Notes: generated by a model from the sequence alone, not told the origin. 32,000 nt of DNA from an uncultured archaeon (GCA_963759195.1 CAVWXJ010000008.1:27898-59897), one strand, 5' to 3'; positions 1 to 9,440 are shown, counted from the first letter of the stretch. Program-made: numbers and translations.

Positions 1-1
1 T

Positions 2-595
2 CCTGATGGGACTGCGGACGTGATAAGGGAAGAGATGTCGGGGGACGCATCGGTACACCTTCTTCTAAGAGGGAGCAAGCAAGGAATCGGTTCGGCCCAC
101 ATCGAAGGGTTCGCGGAGGCGATGAGGGAGTATGCGGCGGACGTCTTGGTCGAACTAGACGCGGACCTACAGCAGCCCCCTGAAAAGATCCCCGAACTTG
201 TCGCTTCTGTGAGGTCGGGCGCGGACGTCGCGGTCGCCTCCAGAAAAGTCACGGGAGGCGGAACTGTCGGCTGGAGTCTCTGGAGAAGGACGGTCAGTTC
301 GGGCGCTAACTTCTATGCCAGAGTGCTTCTGGGAATCCCAATAAGAGACTGCACTTCAGGGTTCAGGGCCCTCAGTAGGAACGCCGCTCAGGTTCTCGTC
401 GAAGGAAAGGTCCAAGCGTCCCAGTTCTACTTTCAGGTCGCTTCTCTGTACCTGCTCAAGAAACAAGGCATGAAGATGGTAGAGATTCCGTTCGTCTTCG
501 GCGAAAGACGGTCAGGAAGGTCAAAGCTCGGCTGGGGCGAAATTGTCGGGTTCTTCTTCGGCGTCCTCAGACTGCGCTTGTCGTCAATTGGCTAA
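2..595 (+). CDS. GT2 glycosyltransferase, dolichyl/polyprenyl-phosphate mannose synthase-like (5' end outside window)
   Basis: The frame is open from nt 2 (PDGTADVIRE precedes the first GTG at 20). Blocks LVELDADLQQPP, VASRKV.GGG..GWS..RR..S..AN.Y and IRDCTSGFRAL fit the Dpm1/GT2 family by recall. Confidence 0.8.
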   Translation, partial: PDGTADVIREEMSGDASVHLLLRGSKQGIGSAHIEGFAEAMREYAADVLVELDADLQQPPEKIPELVASVRSGADVAVASRKVTGGGTVGWSLWRRTVSSGANFYARVLLGIPIRDCTSGFRALSRNAAQVLVEGKVQASQFYFQVASLYLLKKQGMKMVEIPFVFGERRSGRSKLGWGEIVGFFFGVLRLRLSSIG

Positions 596-651
596 AGCGC
601 CTCACACATTGACGAAAGTTCTAAAGCCCAACGGAAAGGGCGGGCATCAGG

Positions 652-2634
652 TTGTCCGTCAACTGGGCGCTGCCATTCAGCGAACAGGTCCCGACTGACG
701 GATGGGAGACAGTCACACCGAAGAAGTACATCGCCTCCCACGAATCGAGTCTGGCACGGGGTCCTGAGTTCTGGTCAGCGGTGGCATCTGAGCTGGACTG
801 GTACAGGAAGTGGGACAAGACACTTGACGACAGCAGACCACCTTTCTACAAGTGGTTCGTCGGCGGCGAGCTGAACGCCAGTCATCTCTGCGTAGACAGA
901 CATGCAAAAGGCCCCCTGAGGAACAAGACCGCCATCCTGTGGGAAGGCGAACCCGTCGAGGGAGCGGTCCCTAAGGAGGTCAGGAAGGTAACCTACGGAG
1001 ACCTCTACAGGGATGTGAATCGGATGGCCTATCTTCTCAACCACAGGTATGGGATCAAGAAGGGAGACGCTATCGGACTCTACATGCCGATGGTCCCGGA
1101 GTTCCCGACCGTGATGCTGGCTGCGGCTCGGCTCGGAGCGCCCTTCACAGTCATCTTCTCGGGGTTCAGCGACGAAGCGCTGGCTGAGCGGCTCCAGGAC
1201 GCCGACGCAAAACTGCTTGTCACTGCGGACGGAGGATGGAGAAGGGGGAACGTCATCAAGCTCAAAGAGATTGCCGACGAAGCGATGGCCGAGGCCACCT
1301 GCGTCGAACATTCGCTTGTACTCCGGCGTGTGGGTAACGGGGTCAGCATGCGCCAGGGGCGGGACGAGTACCTCGACTCGGCCATGGACGGCGTCCCCAG
1401 TGACGCGGTGGTGGAGCCTATCAAAGTGAAGTCCGAGGATCCACTCTTCATACTCCACACCTCGGGGACAACTGGGAAGCCAAAGGGGCAGGTTCACGAC
1501 CTTGGCGGCTACCTCACCCTTCTCCACGCCACAATGAATTGGGTGTTCGACATCACTAAGGAAGACATCTACTGGTGTACCGCTGACATCGGCTGGGTGA
1601 CAGGCCACTCATACGTAGTGTTCGGGCCGCTGATGGAAGGCGCGACGACCGTGATGTACGAGGGAGCAATCGACTACCCCCACCCAGACCGATGGGTCTC
1701 CCTGATTGAGCGGCACAAGGTGAGCGTGCTCTACACTTCCCCAACCGCAATACGAGGATTCATGAAAATGGGCGAAGAGTGGGTGAAGAAGCATGATGTC
1801 TCCACCGTCAGGCTCATGCATTCGGTGGGGGAACCCATCAACCCTGCTGCGTTCAGGTGGATGCACAGAATGGTCGGCGGCGACAAGGTGCCCTTCGGAA
1901 GCACGTGGTGGATGACGGAGACCGGGGGAATAATGATCAGCATCACGCCGGGGGGAGAGATGATACCGATGAAACCGGGAACAAACGGCCTTCCCATCCC
2001 AGGCATCGATGCGGACGTGGTCGACGATTCTGGAAAGCCGTCGGCAGCGCTCGCCCGCGGATTCCTTGTGATCAAACGCCCTTGGCCGGGGATGCCGCTC
2101 ACAATACACAAGGACCCTGAGAGATACAGGCAGGTATACTGGAGTAGGTTTCCTGGCTGGTTTTACGCTGGCGACTACGCCGTAAAGGACAACGACGGCT
2201 ACTTCTGGATACTCGGCAGGGCCGACGAGGTGATCAAGGTAGCAGGCCACAGGCTGGGAACCTACGAGCTCGAGTCTGCGCTAGTCCATCACCCGGCGGT
2301 CGCCGAGGCTGCGGTCGTTGGCGTTCCCGACTCGGTCAAGGGAGAGGTTCCAGTCGGGTTTGTGATTCTTCGCTCCGGCAATCTGCCCAGCGACGGGGTA
2401 AGGGAAGAACTCAAAGCAAGAGTCCGCGAGCACGTAGGTCACATCGCCACCCTCAAGGAGGTCTACTTCGTATCCAAGCTGCCAAAGACCAGAAGCGCGA
2501 AGATAATGAGGAGAGTTGTGAAGGCTGTCGTTCAGGGCACCCCGGTGGGTGACGTCACAACCCTCGAGGACGAGGCGTCCGTGGACGAGGTCAAGCGTGC
2601 CTACGAAGAATTGAAGAAAGAGGTTTCCAGGTAA
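652..2634 (+). CDS. acs: Acetyl-CoA synthetase (AMP-forming)
   Basis: 660-aa ORF with a TTG start. YKWFVGGELNASHLCVDRH, HTSGTTGKPKG, WWMTETGG, YFWILGRADEVIKVAGHRLGTYELE and PKTRSAKIMRR are classical Acs/adenylate-forming motifs. Confidence 0.93.
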   Translation: MSVNWALPFSEQVPTDGWETVTPKKYIASHESSLARGPEFWSAVASELDWYRKWDKTLDDSRPPFYKWFVGGELNASHLCVDRHAKGPLRNKTAILWEGEPVEGAVPKEVRKVTYGDLYRDVNRMAYLLNHRYGIKKGDAIGLYMPMVPEFPTVMLAAARLGAPFTVIFSGFSDEALAERLQDADAKLLVTADGGWRRGNVIKLKEIADEAMAEATCVEHSLVLRRVGNGVSMRQGRDEYLDSAMDGVPSDAVVEPIKVKSEDPLFILHTSGTTGKPKGQVHDLGGYLTLLHATMNWVFDITKEDIYWCTADIGWVTGHSYVVFGPLMEGATTVMYEGAIDYPHPDRWVSLIERHKVSVLYTSPTAIRGFMKMGEEWVKKHDVSTVRLMHSVGEPINPAAFRWMHRMVGGDKVPFGSTWWMTETGGIMISITPGGEMIPMKPGTNGLPIPGIDADVVDDSGKPSAALARGFLVIKRPWPGMPLTIHKDPERYRQVYWSRFPGWFYAGDYAVKDNDGYFWILGRADEVIKVAGHRLGTYELESALVHHPAVAEAAVVGVPDSVKGEVPVGFVILRSGNLPSDGVREELKARVREHVGHIATLKEVYFVSKLPKTRSAKIMRRVVKAVVQGTPVGDVTTLEDEASVDEVKRAYEELKKEVSR

Positions 2635-2636
2635 GC

Positions 2637-3122
2637 AGAATAGAGGATATTGTAGATTGAAATATTGTAAGAGTGGTAGTGAGTGTTGGGTTAGGATTAG
2701 TGGAAAATAAGATGGTGTTTTTTTTTTAGTTAGTTGGGATAGGAATAGAGATTTGTTTAGTTATAGTGTGTTGTAAGTTTTATAAATTGGTTGGAAGTTA
2801 GAAGTCTGTCACTTAGTTTAATTTTTATGTTTGAGAGATTAGAGAGAGTACTAGATTAAGAGTTCTATGGGTTTAAGAAGGATGAGGATTAAATTGTAAG
2901 TGACATAGACATAGAGCTTCTCTCATTAAAAAACGAGAACAAGTACACTAAAGGTTTGGGGACTGAGATAAAAGAGCTTGTAAGTATACTAGATAGTGTG
3001 AAAGTGTATTTTGTAGTAATAGATAGTGTGGTATAAAAATGAGTATTTAAACATGGGCTAGGCTTATAAGATGAGAATAAGTATAGCAACATTAATATAC
3101 ACAATAGTATTAAAGTAAGGAT
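2637..3122. other. AT-rich, cytosine-depleted non-coding block (C-free on + strand 2637-2805)
   Basis: Direct reading finds no C between 2637 and 2805 and only about 13 C up to 2940. The block holds short internal direct repeats, TATA-like TATAAAAAT / TATTTAAAC at about 3032-3052, and no credible ORF. Confidence 0.9.
2718..2727 (+). terminator. Oligo-T tract (T10), candidate archaeal terminator for acs
   Basis: An uninterrupted T10 lies about 85 nt downstream of the acs stop. Archaeal RNAP terminates at oligo-T on the non-template strand. Confidence 0.35.
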
Positions 3123-4367
3123 ATGGATATAGAAAGAGAGAGGTGGGAAATGGACGCAGACGACTTCGAGGCGCTCTCGGAATACCTCGAAAAGAGACAC
3201 GAGGAGGAGCAGAGACTGATGAACCAATTCAACCTCAAAGCGACATTCGACGAGCGTGAGGCAAGAGGCGAGGCAATCGCCCATGAGTTCGGGTGGGTTC
3301 AACGCGTGGACGAGTTCTCTTACAGAGTTCACAGTCAGAAGCTGGACAAGGAATACCAAGTCCAGAAGACCGAGACGGGTTGGGTTTGTTCCTGCCCTGA
3401 TTCCACGTTTAGGCTTCTCAAGTGCAAGCACGTCTGGGCTGTCGAGATTAGCTGGACTCTGAGGGAGCAAGTCAAGGAGTCGGTTGTGATTCAGTCGGTT
3501 AGGGTAGATGCGTGCCTGTTCTGCGGTTCGGGTCGGCTCGTCAAGGACGGGATAAGACACAACAAGTCGGGCGACATTCAGAAGTTCGAGTGCCGAGACT
3601 GCGGGAGATACTTCACGGTCAACGTGGGCTTCGAGAGGATGAAGCACGACCCGAAGGCGATAACTGCGGCCATGCAGTTCTACTTCTCTGGGAGAGAGTT
3701 CGAGGAATACAGCGAGGGCGCTCAAGCTCATGGGGGCGGAGGTATTCACATAGAACTGTCCTCAACTGGATTGGAAAGTATGTCGCTCTCATGGATAAGT
3801 ATCTGGACAAGATTACCCCGCATGTCTCGAACACATGGAGGGCAGACGAGATGTTCGTCAAGGTGAAGGGAAACGTGAAGTGGCTGTTCGCCATGATGGA
3901 CGACGAGACTCGCTTCTGGATTGCTCAACAGGTCTCAGACACCAAATTCAACGCGGCAGTTAGGCCACTCTTCGCGGATGCCAAGCGGATAGCGGGGAAG
4001 CGGCCTCTGACCCTCATCACAGACGGAGGCCACCACTTCAATCAACCCTTCAAGAAGGAGTTCTATTCCAAGTATGCCCCGTTCTCCATCCATGTGAGGG
4101 ACATTCAGGCTCAGCGGCCAAGTCCACAACAACAAGATGGAGCGCATGAATGGGGAAATTCGAGACCGAGAGAAGGTCATGCGTGGTCTAAAGAACACCG
4201 ACACGCCCATCCTCAAGGGCATCCAGATTTACCACAACTTCATCCGACCCCATGAATCGCTGAACGGTCAGACACCCGCAGACAAAGCGGGAATCAGGGT
4301 CGAGGGGAAGGACAAGTGGCTGACTCTGATTCAGAACGCGAGCAAAGGCTCAAAGGCCAAACCATAG
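3123..4367 (+). pseudogene. IS6-family (IS240/IS26-type DDE) transposase with N-terminal SWIM zinc finger, disrupted by three +1 frameshifts
   Basis: The reading passes frame 0 (3123 to ~3692: CSCPD..CKH SWIM motif, C..C zinc ribbon, AITAAMQFYFSG), frame 1 (~3694-3744: ESSRNTARALKLMGAEV), frame 2 (~3746-4110: SHRTVLNWIGKYV, WRADEMFVKVKG, LFAMMDDETRFW, LITDGGHHFN) and frame 0 again (~4113-4367: NNKMERMNGEIRDREKV, YHNFIRPHESLNGQTPA). The HTH plus D..D..E layout parallels IS26. Confidence 0.8.
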
Positions 4368-4388
4368 ATACCCTCACGGGAGGAGTAA

Positions 4389-4649
4389 TTGAGTTCTGAA
4401 GAACGGCAGAAAAGGCTTGAGGCTTTGAATCGTTGGTGGAGGGTAGAGATTCCAAGAAGAATCGTTGGTGGTTGGATTGATGACAAGGACGATGATGTTT
4501 TCGAGGAAGTTGTGTATGCACTGATAGCGCAAGCCCAGAAGAGGTGGGGTGTGGCAATCACAACTGCGAGAGATTATGCAAGAGTGGTCTTTATCGCTAA
4601 TGAGGCTTACCTGAAGTCCGAACAAAAGAAGCATAGGAAGTCAGGATAG
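4389..4649 (+). CDS. Hypothetical 86-aa protein directly downstream of the IS transposase
   Basis: ORF with a TTG start and balanced, charged composition (EERQKRLEALNRWW...). I recognise no family. It could be an IS passenger or a host gene. Confidence 0.35.
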   Translation: MSSEERQKRLEALNRWWRVEIPRRIVGGWIDDKDDDVFEEVVYALIAQAQKRWGVAITTARDYARVVFIANEAYLKSEQKKHRKSG

Positions 4650-4773
4650 GCCGATTAGTTCATTCGCCCGACGAAAGTTTCCAATTCACCGAAAGAGGGA
4701 GAATCCGACAAAGACTTCCCAGAACCCTGAGACCAAAGATACAAATACGAGAGAAATCAGATTCTCGAAAGAA

Positions 4774-4977
4774 TTGTCAGAAACTCCTGCAGCACCCGCT
4801 GAGAAGCCTGCTGAGCCAGCCAAGGTCTTCGCCAGCGCAATCTATGAGTGTGTGAGGTGCGGGACAAGGACGACCCAGGAAGAGCTGTCACATCTCCCAG
4901 AAGTGAAGTGCATCTGCGGCTACCGCGTTTTCAGAAAGGCGCGGCCGCCCGTAGTGAAACAGATCAAGGCAGTCTAG
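4774..4977 (+). CDS. rpoP: DNA-directed RNA polymerase subunit P (Rpo12/RpoP) with N-terminal extension
   Basis: C-terminal 45 aa YECVRCGTRTTQEELSHLPEVKCICGYRVFRKARPPVVKQIKAV matches the archaeal RpoP zinc-ribbon pattern (Y.C..CG...L..LP.V.C..CGY.....R.P..K..KA). The only in-frame start is TTG. Confidence 0.8.
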   Translation: MSETPAAPAEKPAEPAKVFASAIYECVRCGTRTTQEELSHLPEVKCICGYRVFRKARPPVVKQIKAV

Positions 4978-5073
4978 CCGAACGTCTTAGGGTTTCGACA
5001 CCTGCCTAACTAGAAGTGCTACAGCTGCCTCATCGTTTATGTATGCGACGGCGAGAGCGATTTTGATTCTCGG

Positions 5074-6117
5074 ATGTACGTCATGAGAAGCAAGATTCCT
5101 ACAGCAATCAAGGGCTACGGGGCTTATGTTCCATACTACCGACTTCCAACGACCGAAATCGCCCGAATCTGGAAGGGAGGGGGGACAGGCCCGAACCTCG
5201 AAAAATCCGTTGCCGGGCTCGACGAGGATACGGCAACCATGGCCATAGAAGCTTCAAGGATGGCAATGAAGATGGCTGGGGTCGAGCATCTCGGGGCGGT
5301 CTTTGTCGGAACCGAGTCGAAGCCCTACGCAGTCAAACCTACAAGCACGATAGTCGCTCAGGCGCTGGGACAGCACCATACGCTCTCTGCCGACCTGGAG
5401 TTCGCGTGCAAGGCAGGGACCGAGGCGATGCAGGTGGTGATGGGGCTTGTGGGCTCGGGAATGATCGACGCGGGTCTTGCCATAGGCATGGACACGGCCC
5501 AAGGGAGGCCGGGAGACGACCTAGAGTACACTGCTTCTAGCGGCGGCGCAGCCTTCGTGATCGGGCAAAAGGACAAGGACGCAATCGCCTACTTCGATTG
5601 CAGCACGTCCTACGTGTCGGACACGGGAGACTTCTGGAGACGCCCTCGCCAGATGTATCCACGACACCTCTCAAGGTTCACAGGGGAGCCTGCCTACTTT
5701 CATCACATCGAGACAGCCGTCAAGACGCTCTTCGAAGAGACTGGGCACAAGGCGAGCGATTTCGACTATGCGGTCTTCCATCAGCCCAATCCGAGGTTTC
5801 CCGTTGAGGTGGCCACCAGACTCGGATTCAACGCCGACCAGATCAAGACAGGCCTTCTGAACCCAATGATAGGCAACACCTACGCAGGCTCATCGCCCAT
5901 CGGGCTGGCAGCGGTCCTTGACGAGGCCAAGCCGGGCAACAAGATACTGGTCGCGAGCTTCGGCTCCGGAGCAGGTTCAGACGTCTTCTGCATAGAAGTC
6001 CTAGATGGGATCAAGAAGAAGCGCGGAATCAACCCGACGGTGAAATCGATGATTCAAAGGAGTTCCAAGATTGATTATTCAACATACATCAAGTTCCGTG
6101 AGAAGCTCCACAGGTAG
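5074..6117 (+). CDS. Hydroxymethylglutaryl-CoA synthase (archaeal type)
   Basis: 347 aa. GYGAYVPYYRL, EKSVAGLDEDTATMA and the thiolase-fold GSGAGSD C-terminus fit the family. Its stop overlaps the thiolase start by 1 nt. Confidence 0.88.
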   Translation: MYVMRSKIPTAIKGYGAYVPYYRLPTTEIARIWKGGGTGPNLEKSVAGLDEDTATMAIEASRMAMKMAGVEHLGAVFVGTESKPYAVKPTSTIVAQALGQHHTLSADLEFACKAGTEAMQVVMGLVGSGMIDAGLAIGMDTAQGRPGDDLEYTASSGGAAFVIGQKDKDAIAYFDCSTSYVSDTGDFWRRPRQMYPRHLSRFTGEPAYFHHIETAVKTLFEETGHKASDFDYAVFHQPNPRFPVEVATRLGFNADQIKTGLLNPMIGNTYAGSSPIGLAAVLDEAKPGNKILVASFGSGAGSDVFCIEVLDGIKKKRGINPTVKSMIQRSSKIDYSTYIKFREKLHR

Positions 6118-7286
6118 TGATTGGCTTGGCTAATGGCAAGGCGTACGTCGCATCCGTCGGCTTCACCAAAATCGGAGACCACTGGGAGAGCTCATTGCTT
6201 GACCTCGCGGTGCAGGCTGCAAGAGGAGCGCTCAAGGGAGCCCCCTCGGTCAGACCCCAGCAGATATTCGTCGGGAACATGTTCAGCTCCATAGGTTCGA
6301 ACCAGGAGCATCTCGGCGCGCTGGTCGCAAGTGCTCTGGGTTTTGAAGGAATCCCAGCGTTCAAGGTCGAGGCCGCCTGCGCGTCAGGCGCATGTGCGTT
6401 CAACGTCGCCTACAAGCTGGTGAAGTCGGGTGCGCTGGACTCTGCACTGGTTGTGGGGGTCGAGAAGATGAGAGACCTAGAGCCCGAGGTCATCTCCCAG
6501 GCCCTGGCCATGGCCGAATCGTACGAATACACTCAGTTTGTTGGGGCGACGTTTGCCGCGATGAACGCGCTCCTCGCAAGGCTGTACATGGAACAGGCCG
6601 GCGTGAGCCGCGACGAGCTGAGCTCCATCCCCGTCATAGACCACAAGAACGCAGTCACGGCGGAGCACGCGCAGTTCAGAAGGGCGATAACGCCAGAGAT
6701 TGTGGCGCGTTCTGCGATGATAGCGGACCCGCTGAGGCTGTTCGACTGCGCGCCCGTAGGCGACGGGGCGGCCGCGGCCCTCTTGGTGAGCGACAAGGCA
6801 GCCGCGGAAACCAAGAGGCTGGTCGAGGTGCTCGGCGGGAGGATAGCGACTACGGTATTCAGCGTCTACGATAGGAAGGATATGCTTAGGTTCACTGCGA
6901 CTGAGGAGGCATTCAAAGCAGCCCTCGGGGAGTCAGCAGTTCCCCGCGCCAAGTTGGACTTCGCGGAGATTCACGACGCCTTCTCTGTGGTTGGCGCACT
7001 CGCGCTGGAAGCGATGGGATTCTCCAAGAAGGGACAGGGTTCCAAAGACGCCGCTCAGGGCAAGTACAACTTCGACTCTGAAATGCCGATCAACACCTTC
7101 GGTGGCCTAAAGGCCCGGGGGCACCCGGTGGGAGCCACAGGACTCTACCAGATCGCCGAGGCCTACCTCCAGCTAACGGGCAAGGGTGGCAAGAACCAGC
7201 TCAAGGAAGCGGAGTACGGAGTCACGCAGAATGTTGGCGCTGTGGATACGACGAGCGCTATTCACATATTCGGGAGGGCGGCCTAG
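6117..7286 (+). CDS. Acetyl-CoA acetyltransferase (archaeal thiolase)
   Basis: 389 aa. The active-site context VEAACASGA and the C-terminal GGLKARGHPVGATG fit the family. The start is GTG and the stop abuts the next ATG. Confidence 0.9.
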   Translation: MIGLANGKAYVASVGFTKIGDHWESSLLDLAVQAARGALKGAPSVRPQQIFVGNMFSSIGSNQEHLGALVASALGFEGIPAFKVEAACASGACAFNVAYKLVKSGALDSALVVGVEKMRDLEPEVISQALAMAESYEYTQFVGATFAAMNALLARLYMEQAGVSRDELSSIPVIDHKNAVTAEHAQFRRAITPEIVARSAMIADPLRLFDCAPVGDGAAAALLVSDKAAAETKRLVEVLGGRIATTVFSVYDRKDMLRFTATEEAFKAALGESAVPRAKLDFAEIHDAFSVVGALALEAMGFSKKGQGSKDAAQGKYNFDSEMPINTFGGLKARGHPVGATGLYQIAEAYLQLTGKGGKNQLKEAEYGVTQNVGAVDTTSAIHIFGRAA

Positions 7287-7676
7287 ATGGCGATACAATA
7301 TTGGAGGCAGAGGGACAGGTACTACAGACTGATTGGAAGCAAGTGCACAGAGTGCGGAGCGGAGTTCTTCCCTCCAGTCTACAAATGCAGGAAGTGCGGC
7401 TCCGAGAGTGTGGAAGACAAAGAGATGCCGAAGACGGGAAAGATTCTGACGTATACCGTGCTCCACGAGCCCCTGCCGGGGTTCGAGGCTCAGGCGCCAT
7501 TCTTCATTGCCGTAATCGAGCTTGAGAACGGAGGCCGGGTGCTCAGCCAGGTTGTCGACTCGCCCGATGAATCTGTGAGGATCGGAGCGAAGGTGCGCGC
7601 GACTGTCAGAAAGGTCAGGGTAGATGGCGAATCTGGCCAGATTCTTTACGGCTACAAATTCATTGTAGAAAGCTAG
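7287..7676 (+). CDS. DUF35 OB-fold/zinc-ribbon protein (scaffold of the thiolase/HMG-CoA synthase complex)
   Basis: 129 aa. Zinc ribbon CTECGAEFFPPVYKCRKCGS is followed by an OB-fold-like C-terminus. The gene sits in the conserved position after the thiolase. Confidence 0.85.
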   Translation: MAIQYWRQRDRYYRLIGSKCTECGAEFFPPVYKCRKCGSESVEDKEMPKTGKILTYTVLHEPLPGFEAQAPFFIAVIELENGGRVLSQVVDSPDESVRIGAKVRATVRKVRVDGESGQILYGYKFIVES

Positions 7677-8033
7677 CAACCGAACGGCAATTACACGTGC
7701 AATCTAAGCTCCTGAAACCACTTCCCTGAACGACTCTCTCCTTCACATCCTGCCGAGGGTTCACCAGATTCCACATGCCGAAGGCCTTTATACTCTCCAG
7801 GGATACTTGTTCATTATGACTTTTGCGCGAAGAAAGAAGTGGGAAGTAATTCGAAGACGGAGACACTCTTCTCATCAGAACACGCTTGAACACCGTTCTG
7901 CTCACCCATCGAAATCCGGTTAACGGATCAAGCGAAGAGTCCTGAACAAGGAACAAACTGTCTCGTTTGATTCAATAATCAGCTACAAATTCGCAGACGA
8001 AGGCTGATTGAACGGGCCGCCGGTGGGTACGGG

Positions 8034-9440
8034 CTAGGTGGTTCCAATGATTGCATCCTTTCCGAATCTGCCCCTGATGTAACGTGCAAGCAAGGGCGCT
8101 TGGATGGTTATGGAGAGGAAGGCGACTCCGAGGACCATTGTAGTTATGGTCTGGACATCGCCCTGAGAAACAACAGCCGACACACCGAGTGATGCGGCAA
8201 GAGCGATTGACAAGGCGCCGCGGAACCCGCCGAGAACGGCGACGTTGCTCCACGAAATCGGGATTTTTTCGCCCACCTGGCTGAAGATTGCCAAGATTGG
8301 GTATGCCGACGCCGTTCTTGCGACTGTCACGGCCAGATACGCTGCGAGTATCGGGACCAGGGCAACGTAGATTGCACCAAGATTCGTCTCGAATCCTATC
8401 ATTAGGAAAGCGACGGAGTTGCCGAGGAAGGCTGCTAGTTCCCAAAAGGTCGAGATTGCCTCTCTTCCGGGAGAGGCTATGGTGGAACCTCTTGTGACGT
8501 TCCCGATGTACAAGCCCACGATTGCAACTGCGATGAGGCCAGACATTCCGAGCCCTGAAGCAAACACGTACGAACCGTAAACAGCGGACACCGTCACAAT
8601 GGTCTTCGCGGTCCTGTCCTCGACCGCTGAGATAATCCGTCGCGCCCACAGCGCAACGAGGAGACCGATTACCGCCCCTCCAGCCATTGTGAAGACGAAA
8701 AGGGTGAACGATGAGAAGAGGGAAATCCCGGCCACTCCCACGGAAGACAGCAAGATGCTGAAAATCACGATTGCCGTTGCATCGTTGAAAGCTGCTTCGA
8801 CTTCCATCAAGGTCGAGAGTTTCAGGGGGACCTTGGCTCGGCGGAACACTTCAAGGACCGTTACCGTGTCCGTGGGTGAAATGATCACAGCAAAGAGCAT
8901 TGAAGCCATGAGCGAAAGGCCTGCGAGTCGCCACAGGATTGCGCCGCACACCAGTGTGGCAACCGCAACTCCGACTGTCGCAAGGACAAGGGCGGGCCTG
9001 ACGACGCTCTTCAAGTTCTCGACATCCACGTGCATCATCGCCTCGAAAATCAGCGGGGGTACCACGAGGCCGACGAACAGACCACCCTTGACGAGGGTGG
9101 AGTAGACAGACCTCATCTGTGTAACCGCTTCGACGATTCCTGTTGTGACCGCATTAGAACCCAAGGTCGGAAGAGAAGCAAAGGTTGTGACACCGATGCC
9201 GACAAAGACGAGCACCAAGGTGTAGGGAAGCTTTGACTTGACCGAAAGGAGTTCCGAAGCCACGAGCACGAGCAGAAAACCCGTGAGTACTATCTCAGTC
9301 GCCGCGACTGCCACAGAGCGCTTTCGCTCGGATAAGAGATAAGCGTTAGCTTGAGCAAGTCTTCCAGACGCGCCGAGTCTGACCAGAGCAAGGCCGTGGA
9401 GACTCGGGGCGAATGGTACCTCAATATCATGATCGGCCAC
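8034..9440 (-). CDS. Cation:proton antiporter, CPA1/NhaP-type Na+/H+ exchanger
   Basis: 468-aa polytopic membrane protein with a GTG start. IISPTDTVTVLEVF and EVEAAFNDATAIVIF resemble the NhaP TM4/TM5 signatures. Confidence 0.8.
   Translation of the reverse strand: MADHDIEVPFAPSLHGLALVRLGASGRLAQANAYLLSERKRSVAVAATEIVLTGFLLVLVASELLSVKSKLPYTLVLVFVGIGVTTFASLPTLGSNAVTTGIVEAVTQMRSVYSTLVKGGLFVGLVVPPLIFEAMMHVDVENLKSVVRPALVLATVGVAVATLVCGAILWRLAGLSLMASMLFAVIISPTDTVTVLEVFRRAKVPLKLSTLMEVEAAFNDATAIVIFSILLSSVGVAGISLFSSFTLFVFTMAGGAVIGLLVALWARRIISAVEDRTAKTIVTVSAVYGSYVFASGLGMSGLIAVAIVGLYIGNVTRGSTIASPGREAISTFWELAAFLGNSVAFLMIGFETNLGAIYVALVPILAAYLAVTVARTASAYPILAIFSQVGEKIPISWSNVAVLGGFRGALSIALAASLGVSAVVSQGDVQTITTMVLGVAFLSITIQAPLLARYIRGRFGKDAIIGTT

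Follow-up and report, generated by a model that had tools for sequence, protein, structure and literature searches.

A cytosine-depleted tract at the truncated left end of an IS6-family transposon in an uncultured archaeon

A 32,000-nucleotide stretch of DNA from an uncultured archaeon (GCA_963759195.1, CAVWXJ010000008.1:27898-59897), referred to here as the window, contains a left-truncated transposon of the IS6 family of insertion sequences (IS) between the acetyl-CoA synthetase gene acs and an rpoP-like gene. The first 505 base pairs of the insert are strongly depleted of cytosine on the + strand, and the first 169 nucleotides lack it completely. An intact copy of the same transposon at the same site shows that this block derives from ordinary coding DNA, that of a gene named p154 and of an AbrB/PrlF-like antitoxin gene, in which C was replaced or lost while the other three bases were nearly all retained. 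The features of the locus are listed below, with positions counted from the first nucleotide of the window; L084 and L086 are contigs of the intact transposon, described further on.

652 to 2634, + strand: acs (acetyl-CoA synthetase), intact, the left flank of the insertion site (Pfam ACAS_N, AMP-binding and AMP-binding_C).
2637 to 4724: left-truncated copy of the IS6-family transposon of about 3.1 kb; 2,088 bp without a counterpart in the empty-site allele.
2637 to 3141, + strand: the entire C-targeted conversion tract, 505 bp, from alignment to L086.
2637 to 2805, + strand: the C-free run, the most heavily converted part; 0 of 57 donor C kept.
2637 to 2812, - strand: wrecked remnant of the first 60-70 or so codons of p154, a 154-residue gene of unknown function, from alignment to L084 and L086.
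2809 to 3020, - strand: wrecked remnant of the AbrB/PrlF (MazE-type) antitoxin-like gene, 73 residues long in relatives.
3021 to 3149: divergent intergenic region between the AbrB-like gene and the transposase leader; the conversion reaches 3141.
3150 to 4366, + strand: IS6-family transposase gene with a SWIM zinc finger and DDE_Tnp_IS240 (PF13610), from Pfam matches, read in several frames.
4389 to 4649, + strand: ORF2, an orphan open reading frame (ORF) in the right arm of the transposon.
4705 to 4726, + strand: right terminal inverted repeat, ending ...GACTTCCCAGAACC.
4727 to 4734, + strand: 8-bp target-site duplication CTGAGACC, of which the window retains this copy only, the left one being deleted.
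4726 to 4977, + strand: rpoP-like zinc-ribbon ORF, the right flank of the insertion site (weak Pfam matches to Zn_ribbon_RPAB4 and DUF7129).

A recount finds no C in the 169 nucleotides from 2637 to 2805 (67 T, 51 A, 51 G), 13 C from 2637 to 2940, and 25 C against 173 A, 165 T and 123 G from 2637 to 3122. The C-free run, the scarcity of C up to 2940 and the AT-rich, strand-skewed composition had all been described in a sequence-only reading of the locus, and the counts bear them out. Sliding composition gives a GC content of 0.29-0.34 and a GC skew of up to +0.84. Since C makes up 27% of the window, the probability of 169 C-free nucleotides from a given start is about 8e-24; that reading had already argued against chance. 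All five of the window's longest C-free runs fall inside 2637-3154; elsewhere in it, the longest run without any one base is 44 nucleotides. No comparable depletion of one base per 150-nucleotide window is present in 670 kb around 79 related IS copies, where the longest base-free run measures 95 nucleotides and is almost pure A/T. Runs of 60-75 nucleotides without C (or G) and with the complementary base abundant are found just upstream of, or beside, the IS copies of two Illumina-assembled relatives (L080:1323-1382; L053:389-454 and 2722-2796). These may be naturally strand-skewed leaders and are far shorter than the tract in the window.

The block has no Rfam match at E<=1, does not fold better than shuffled sequences on either strand (z-scores 0.12 and 0.22), and holds no credible ORF, in agreement with the sequence-only reading. 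Neither tandem repeats nor 3-nucleotide periodicity were detected by autocorrelation and Tandem Repeats Finder, and a telomere-like or tandem-repeat origin is rejected for this reason. The repeats that had been reported are confirmed at their stated places: T10 at 2718-2727, a pair of 16-mers (2685-2700 and 2733-2748), and the 11-mer TAGATAGTGTG, present both at 2990 and at 3020. The segment 2637-3146 has no DNA homology to 79 related loci, the upstream 500 nucleotides of which average 24% C, and a tblastx search of the block against related loci returned nothing. A three-letter (C=T) BLAST search against the window and 80 loci gave nothing above shuffles, and viral and JGI metagenome contigs contained no match, not even to patterns with T-or-C wildcards. 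An example of a block-specific 31-mer is GTTGGGTTAGGATTAGTGGAAAATAAGATGG.

The history of the site is recorded in three Logan contigs, L083, L001 and L086, from the Illumina run ERR10755942. Contig L083 is 100% identical to window positions 1-2636 and then ends with ...GGTAAGC followed by CCCTGAGACC. Contig L001 begins with CCCTGAGACC at window position 4725 and is 99.96% identical to window positions 4725-9400. The two contigs are from essentially the same strain as the window and meet at CCCTGAGACC; therefore, 2637-4724 is missing from an otherwise identical genome. The rpoP-like gene also directly follows acs in the relative L081, the acetyl-CoA synthetase of which is 91% identical.

The 90% cluster of the window's first transposase ORF has one other member, which led to L084 (ENA assembly ERZ25039512), a 3,150-nucleotide contig that aligns to window positions 2724-4727 and has a normal C content throughout. 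Exact look-up of the proteins of L084 led to L086 (2,360 nucleotides). The reverse complement of L086 starts with ...GGTAAGCCC CTGAGACC GGTTCTGGG, which are the end of acs, the 8-bp target and the inverted repeat; the acs-end sequence before CTGAGACC reads ...AAAGAGGTTTCCAGGTAAGCCC. The left end of the element, GGTTCTGGGAAGTC, is a 14/14 inverted match to the right end at window positions 4713-4726, and is followed by a partial unknown gene, p177, p154, the AbrB/PrlF-like gene and the transposase. The duplication CTGAGACC flanks the full element in the Illumina contigs L086, L083 and L001, the target-site 10-mer occurs only once in the window, and L084 spans exactly the transposon, within one nucleotide. 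A complete transposon of about 3.1 kb is thus present between acs and the rpoP-like gene in part of the population, and both this form and the empty site are present in run ERR10755942. Because L086 has both ends at the same site, the idea of a clean insertion lacking a target duplication was dropped, and with it the one-ended, rolling-circle and Shapiro-intermediate models. Contig L084 has the identical sequence to L086 across the passenger genes but departs from it at 28 positions inside the transposase (L084:1615-2305); the transposase of the window matches L086. Several diverged IS copies may have been merged into the consensus L084.

The window is a third allele, a derivative of the full-element allele. 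It lacks about 1.03 kb of the latter: 2 bp of flank, the left copy of the duplication, the left inverted repeat, two genes and the C-terminal two-thirds of p154. The deletion junction at 2636/2637 (GGTAAGC followed by AGAATAGAGG; junction-spanning sequence CCAGGTAAGCAGAATAGAGGATATTG) lies 10 nucleotides outside the left inverted repeat. The sequence-only reading had placed the block correctly between acs and the transposase, and had missed that it starts exactly at a rearrangement junction.

Substitutions were counted against L086. The fate of the donor cytosines in each segment was as follows.

2637 to 3146: 148 donor C; 25 kept, 74 to A, 14 to T, 10 to G, 25 deleted.
2737 to 3146, well aligned: 106 donor C; 25 kept, 62 to A, 7 to T, 4 to G, 8 deleted.
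2637 to 2805: 57 donor C; 0 kept, 20 to A, 9 to T, 7 to G, 21 deleted.
3147 to 3913: 170 donor C; 169 kept, 1 to T; A, G and T all unchanged; three 1-nucleotide insertions in the window.

The + strand has lost 83% of its C in the 505-bp tract and 100% in the first 169 nucleotides. Changes from C to A constitute 60% of all changes, and 85% of the substitutions in the well-aligned part, where 97 of 98 G, 89 of 90 A and 123 of 128 T are unchanged (309/316 together, 98%). Conversion sets in directly at the junction, the first base beyond it (2637) being already changed. Retention of C is 0% in the first 150 nucleotides and 8-44% per 50-nucleotide bin thereafter, and the conversion ends abruptly: the last converted C is at 3141, 9 nucleotides before the transposase leader ORF, and the next C, at 3155, is unchanged. 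Beyond the tract, 3147-3913 differs from L086 by one substitution in 764 aligned positions, and the transposase body shows no excess of C-to-T or C-to-A relative to family-conserved columns. All 26 CpG cytosines are converted, as are 25 of the 28 followed by C and about half of those followed by T or A. Sorted by 5' neighbor, conversion amounts to 86% for TC, 82% for CC and 41% for AC; by the 3' neighbor on the - strand, it is 86% for GA, 82% for GG, 64% for GC and 41% for GT. Predicted pairing of the single-stranded DNA does not account for the unconverted cytosines (p=0.44), which are weakly clustered (P=0.08).

The direction of change was from donor to window, because the intact donor encodes real genes. 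Its AbrB/PrlF-like ORF matches Pfam MazE_antitoxin, and relatives of the protein (P0142-P0149) are at least 73 residues long, with PF04014 in some. In tblastn searches, residues 1-25 of p154 align to window positions 2812-2741, and the AbrB-like protein aligns to the window with substitutions and a frameshift. Alignment to the unmutated copy identifies the repeats in the block as by-products of the replacement of C: for example, TCGATAGTGTG and TCGCCAGTGTG have both become TAGATAGTGTG, and the T10 derives from a CT-rich tract.

The intact allele bears directly on whether the block could be a native functional element, that is, an unstructured RNA free of C or G, a stretch of DNA that melts easily, or a conserved arm of the IS with low GC content, all of which the sequence-only reading had put forward. 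The low GC content, the TATA-like motifs and the - strand RNA, which is predicted to be fully unstructured, would suit such an element. However, the same locus exists with normal composition and intact genes, which refutes a native function, and neither the RNA searches nor the flanks of the 79 related IS copies, which show no upstream C depletion, lend it support. It is very improbable. What survives of the proposed IS arm is that the block is a former passenger region on the same inserted segment as the transposase; it is not foreign low-GC DNA.

The same alignment constrains hypermutation by deamination of C to U on one strand, whether by APOBEC, by DddA/SsdA-like enzymes or thermally, which would leave T in place of C. 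The sequence-only reading had suggested this origin and the alignment to a paralogous copy that could check it. That alignment, run against L086 and L084, settles the matter. The changes are restricted to C on one strand (81/106 C changed versus 1/98 G), with TC and CC contexts favored, and of the origins that had been proposed, one-strand hypermutation is the nearest to the evidence. However, there is no predominance of T for C: only 14 of 123 changes are C-to-T, against 74 of 123 C-to-A, a spectrum that refutes deamination. The block contains 40% T instead of the approximately 49% expected after full C-to-T conversion, and neither a deaminase nor a reverse transcriptase was found among the larger window ORFs scanned against Pfam. 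Deamination therefore retains hardly any credibility.

The reading that best accommodates the tract, to which a probability of about 50% is assigned, is fill-in across a guanine-damaged single-stranded tail during the repair of a break at the transposon end. A double-strand break at or near the left end of the transposon would have been processed asymmetrically, with 5'-to-3' resection on the transposon side leaving the - strand as a 3' single-stranded tail of about 0.5 kb. The guanines of this tail would have been damaged, most plausibly by oxidation to 8-oxoguanine and further oxidation products. After putative end joining to the acs-side end, the + strand would have been resynthesized from the 3'-OH at 2636 over the damaged template. 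The polymerase would have placed A opposite most damaged G, resulting in C-to-A, and sometimes another base or nothing, resulting in C-to-T, C-to-G and -1 deletions. Damage would have been heaviest at the tip, which remained single-stranded the longest, and normal fidelity would have resumed where the old + strand began, at about 3142-3154. On this reading, the tract has no function and inactivates two genes and the element, which has no left end and a frameshifted transposase.

A change from C to A on the + strand is a change from G to T on the - strand, the classical outcome of an 8-oxoguanine:A pair. Guanines are oxidized most readily in GG and GA, less in GC and least in GT, and the context order of conversion on the - strand, GA and GG before GC before GT, appears to parallel this series. 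At 10 nucleotides from the inverted repeat, the junction lies where transposase-linked breaks would naturally occur. Bases A, G and T are called about 99% correctly in the tract, which argues that the molecule that was read carried ordinary bases there. It is established that damaged single-stranded DNA, both at resected breaks and during break-induced replication, gives rise to strand-coordinated mutation clusters (PMC6786661, PMC9262586, PMC6527239).

A different chemistry could have acted in the cell. Lesions on the C of a single-stranded + strand (N3-alkyl or exocyclic adducts), or + strand synthesis starved of dCTP, with misinsertion or skipping at template G, would explain why only C positions change, and the preference for T or C over A as 5' neighbor is consistent with it. 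The outcomes in the first 169 nucleotides, spread over A, T, G and deletion, are those predicted by forced misincorporation, and in yeast reporters no base of single-stranded DNA mutates more readily than cytosine (PMC3799438, PMC6527239). However, damaged or deaminated single-stranded C usually becomes T (PMC6527239), which is the outcome of only 14 of the 123 changes here. A single-stranded + strand also has a polarity at odds with simple 5'-to-3' resection on the transposon side. The commonest mispair of template G for most polymerases would likewise yield C-to-T. This variant explains the C-to-A bias less well than guanine damage does and is unlikely. An event in vivo, by guanine damage or by this chemical variant, is considered somewhat more probable than an origin outside the cell.

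Several observations weigh against repair over damaged guanines. The assembly graph of ERR10755942 branches after CCCTGAGACC, into empty and full forms, and not at 2636. The mutated tract and the left junction occur in no independent data set: the searched collections hold no converted version in other proteins or contigs, no second contig with the converted form was reached through the transposase fragment 3150-3866 or ORF2, and the ORF at 3123-3866, absent from the contig index, is in the protein collection on the 93,217-nucleotide source contig only. On the acs side of the junction, a complementary G-to-T tract is missing, which requires that one side alone was processed. In yeast, redox damage to single-stranded DNA results mainly in C-to-T and not in G-to-T (PMC6527239). 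The unconverted part of the insert contains 3 single-base insertions in 768 nucleotides, against no indels in 7.3 kb of backbone, and so looks like a consensus of few reads. To our knowledge, the conversion of 83-100% of target bases is far above that of any reported damage cluster.

The main rival is a technical artefact, by which the deletion and the C-stripped tract would be confined to the assembled contig. A single aberrant read of the full-element allele, or a few of them, or one damaged molecule of it, could have been built into the contig path at the graph node beside the transposon end and left uncorrected, as normal reads do not map there. Such an artefact has a substantial probability, though one short of even. 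The Illumina contigs of the same strain represent the empty and full-element alleles only, the left junction lies at most 10 nucleotides from the branch point of the assembly graph, and the correspondence of L084 to the transposon within one nucleotide resembles a branch of a graph bubble. Judging by its name alone, of the 'contig_82499' style, L084 fits long-read assemblers. In the window, the transposase gene has gained single bases at 3209 (+G), 3693 (+A) and 3744 (+A), and its frame changes once more near 4105. The G gained at 3209 joins a leader ORF of 22 codons, which begins at 3150, to the main transposase frame, which begins with the ATG at 3221. An ancestral origin of this G was rejected, because relatives have a separate 22-codon leader ORF; the fusion is therefore derived, and the two other insertions break the frame, as in a consensus of very few reads. 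DNA modifications give systematic nanopore errors (bioRxiv 10.64898/2026.03.20.713089, PMC9414165). By contrast, the known errors of this kind are motif-bound and genome-wide. No described kind of artefact swaps one base at 83-100% of positions while leaving the other three about 99% correct; a perturbed signal or modified bases should corrupt the neighboring calls as well, and a ligation chimera cannot rejoin the same locus precisely on both sides.

The transposon itself is an ordinary, though cargo-bearing, member of the IS6 family. Its transposase has 128 related loci, the best with 68% amino-acid identity, and is common in metagenome-assembled genomes (MAGs) of Nitrososphaerales and Bathyarchaeia from peat and soil. 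It shares with IS6/IS26 elements the IS240-type DDE transposase (DDE_Tnp_IS240) and, as seen in the full allele, inverted repeats tipped with GG (GG...CC ends) and the 8-bp target duplication, which is a trait of the IS6 family (PMC7986276). The archaeal clade to which it belongs has a SWIM zinc finger. The element differs from IS6/IS26 elements in its length of about 3.1 kb with the passengers AbrB/PrlF-like gene, p154, p177 and ORF2, and, in the copy in the window, in the loss of the left end and of one copy of the duplication. No inverted repeats were found near the transposase start; the true left end is 2.1 kb further left in the intact allele.

The transposase, AbrB-like and p154-like genes recur together in other samples. 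In L087 (SRR18214642), imperfect inverted repeats of 57 nucleotides (552-608 and 3084-3140), with an 11-nucleotide direct repeat ACCAGGCACCC at the ends (544-554 and 3135-3145), enclose the transposase, the AbrB-like gene, the p154-like gene and a gene of 103 residues. Because the same set recurs, and in L087 lies within terminal repeats, the passenger genes belong to the element, and the clade moves as a unit of about 2.6-3.1 kb with an antitoxin-like passenger cassette. The genes p177 and p154 (L084:232-765 and 762-1226) are adjacent paralogues with alike C-termini (..DWIRKYLEKSAQTGGKGS and ..EWIRNFLRKSSQTGGQGT); neither belongs to a Pfam family, and the pair always adjoins the AbrB/PrlF-like gene. 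They could be the toxin-side partner of a toxin-antitoxin-like cassette. A scan of JGI metagenomes for the p154 protein was empty.

The leader ORF of about 22 codons (MD.DDFE...) is conserved in the archaeal IS6 clade (L006:4001-4120, L008:2406-2525, L029:4001-4120, L009:4001-4120), and its stop overlaps or abuts the transposase ATG in a TGATG-type junction. This arrangement suggests translational coupling or control of the transposase. The sole match of ORF2 among 5.8 billion proteins is itself. The region 4300-4600 around ORF2 is G-rich and C-poor, with a GC skew of about +0.4; the unmutated L084 has the same skew, which is therefore native and outside the conversion.

In the empty-site allele, the rpoP-like ORF is in frame with acs and directly follows its TAA. 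Where L081:2918-2975 has ATG, the window strain has ATC (at about 4757), and the start is possibly an in-frame TTG a few codons downstream. A more distant relative (L082:11984-12875; acetyl-CoA synthetase 85% identical) has other small opposite-strand genes after acs, and not rpoP or HMG-CoA synthase, so the junction of acs and rpoP is a variable spot in the lineage. In the window, the rpoP-like ORF is followed by an archaeal operon of HMG-CoA synthase, thiolase and DUF35 genes, and the remainder is ordinary archaeal chromosome, including genes for TBP, CDC48, an aminoacyl-tRNA synthetase and a multicopper oxidase.

The tract differs from known mutation clusters in its density, spectrum and host. 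Like the clusters formed in damaged single-stranded DNA in yeast reporters and in kataegis, it affects one base on one strand over hundreds of base pairs beside a breakpoint (PMC6786661, PMC9262586), ends sharply where, on the repair reading, duplex DNA would have begun, and leaves the remaining sequence untouched. Unlike them, it involves 83-100% of targets instead of about 1 change per 100-1000 bp, and C-to-A changes and deletions instead of C-to-T or C-to-G, in an archaeal host and with no deaminase implicated. The dominance of G-to-T on the - strand, the preference for GG and GA and the conversion of every CpG are shared with 8-oxoguanine mutagenesis, including the C>A/G>T artefact of library oxidation. 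That process normally affects a tiny fraction of G on both strands, whereas here nearly all G of one strand are changed over 0.5 kb, by a putative lesion. Retroviral hypermutation by APOBEC3G and bacterial single-stranded DNA deaminase toxins likewise edit one base on one strand to near saturation and kill the genes of mobile elements, but their product is C-to-T (read as G-to-A), which accounts for 11% here. Diversity-generating retroelements also pair an intact donor with a recipient that differs at one base type. However, the target in the tract is C/G and not A, 99% of A positions are unchanged, and the scanned ORFs include no reverse transcriptase or Avd; the tract measures 505 bp instead of about 100-150 bp, and destroys ORFs where those systems vary a ligand-binding domain. 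Repeat-induced point mutation in fungi also riddles duplicated mobile sequence with changes at C; these are C-to-T changes on both strands and in both copies with a preference for CpA, as opposed to C-to-A on one strand of one copy.

Whatever its cause, the origin, the donor and the boundaries of the C-free block are defined to the base. If the tract is an artefact, it represents a mode of error that has not been documented, in which base-specific substitutions accompany a false deletion and which is able to persist in published MAGs and pass for exotic biology; a simple scan for one-base depletion could screen for it. It is possible, at odds a little below even, that the window is a real allele of a soil or peat archaeon related to Nitrososphaerales and Bathyarchaeia, in which the repair of a break at the end of a transposon altered one strand over about 0.5 kb, turning essentially every C into A. 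The tract would then be a natural record of how a broken transposon end was processed in an uncultured archaeon, preserving the length of the tail (about 0.5 kb), its polarity, the vulnerable base and the base inserted opposite it. Such a mutation density and transversion spectrum are not known to have been described in any organism, and they would amount to near-saturating, strand-specific transversion hypermutation without a described enzyme or pathway. The candidates would be massive damage or modification directed at guanine in single-stranded DNA, or DNA synthesis in the absence of dCTP, and the host might in this way disable mobile DNA. The tract would thereby raise the question of guanine-targeted damage and of nucleotide-pool control in archaeal repair and in defense against mobile DNA.

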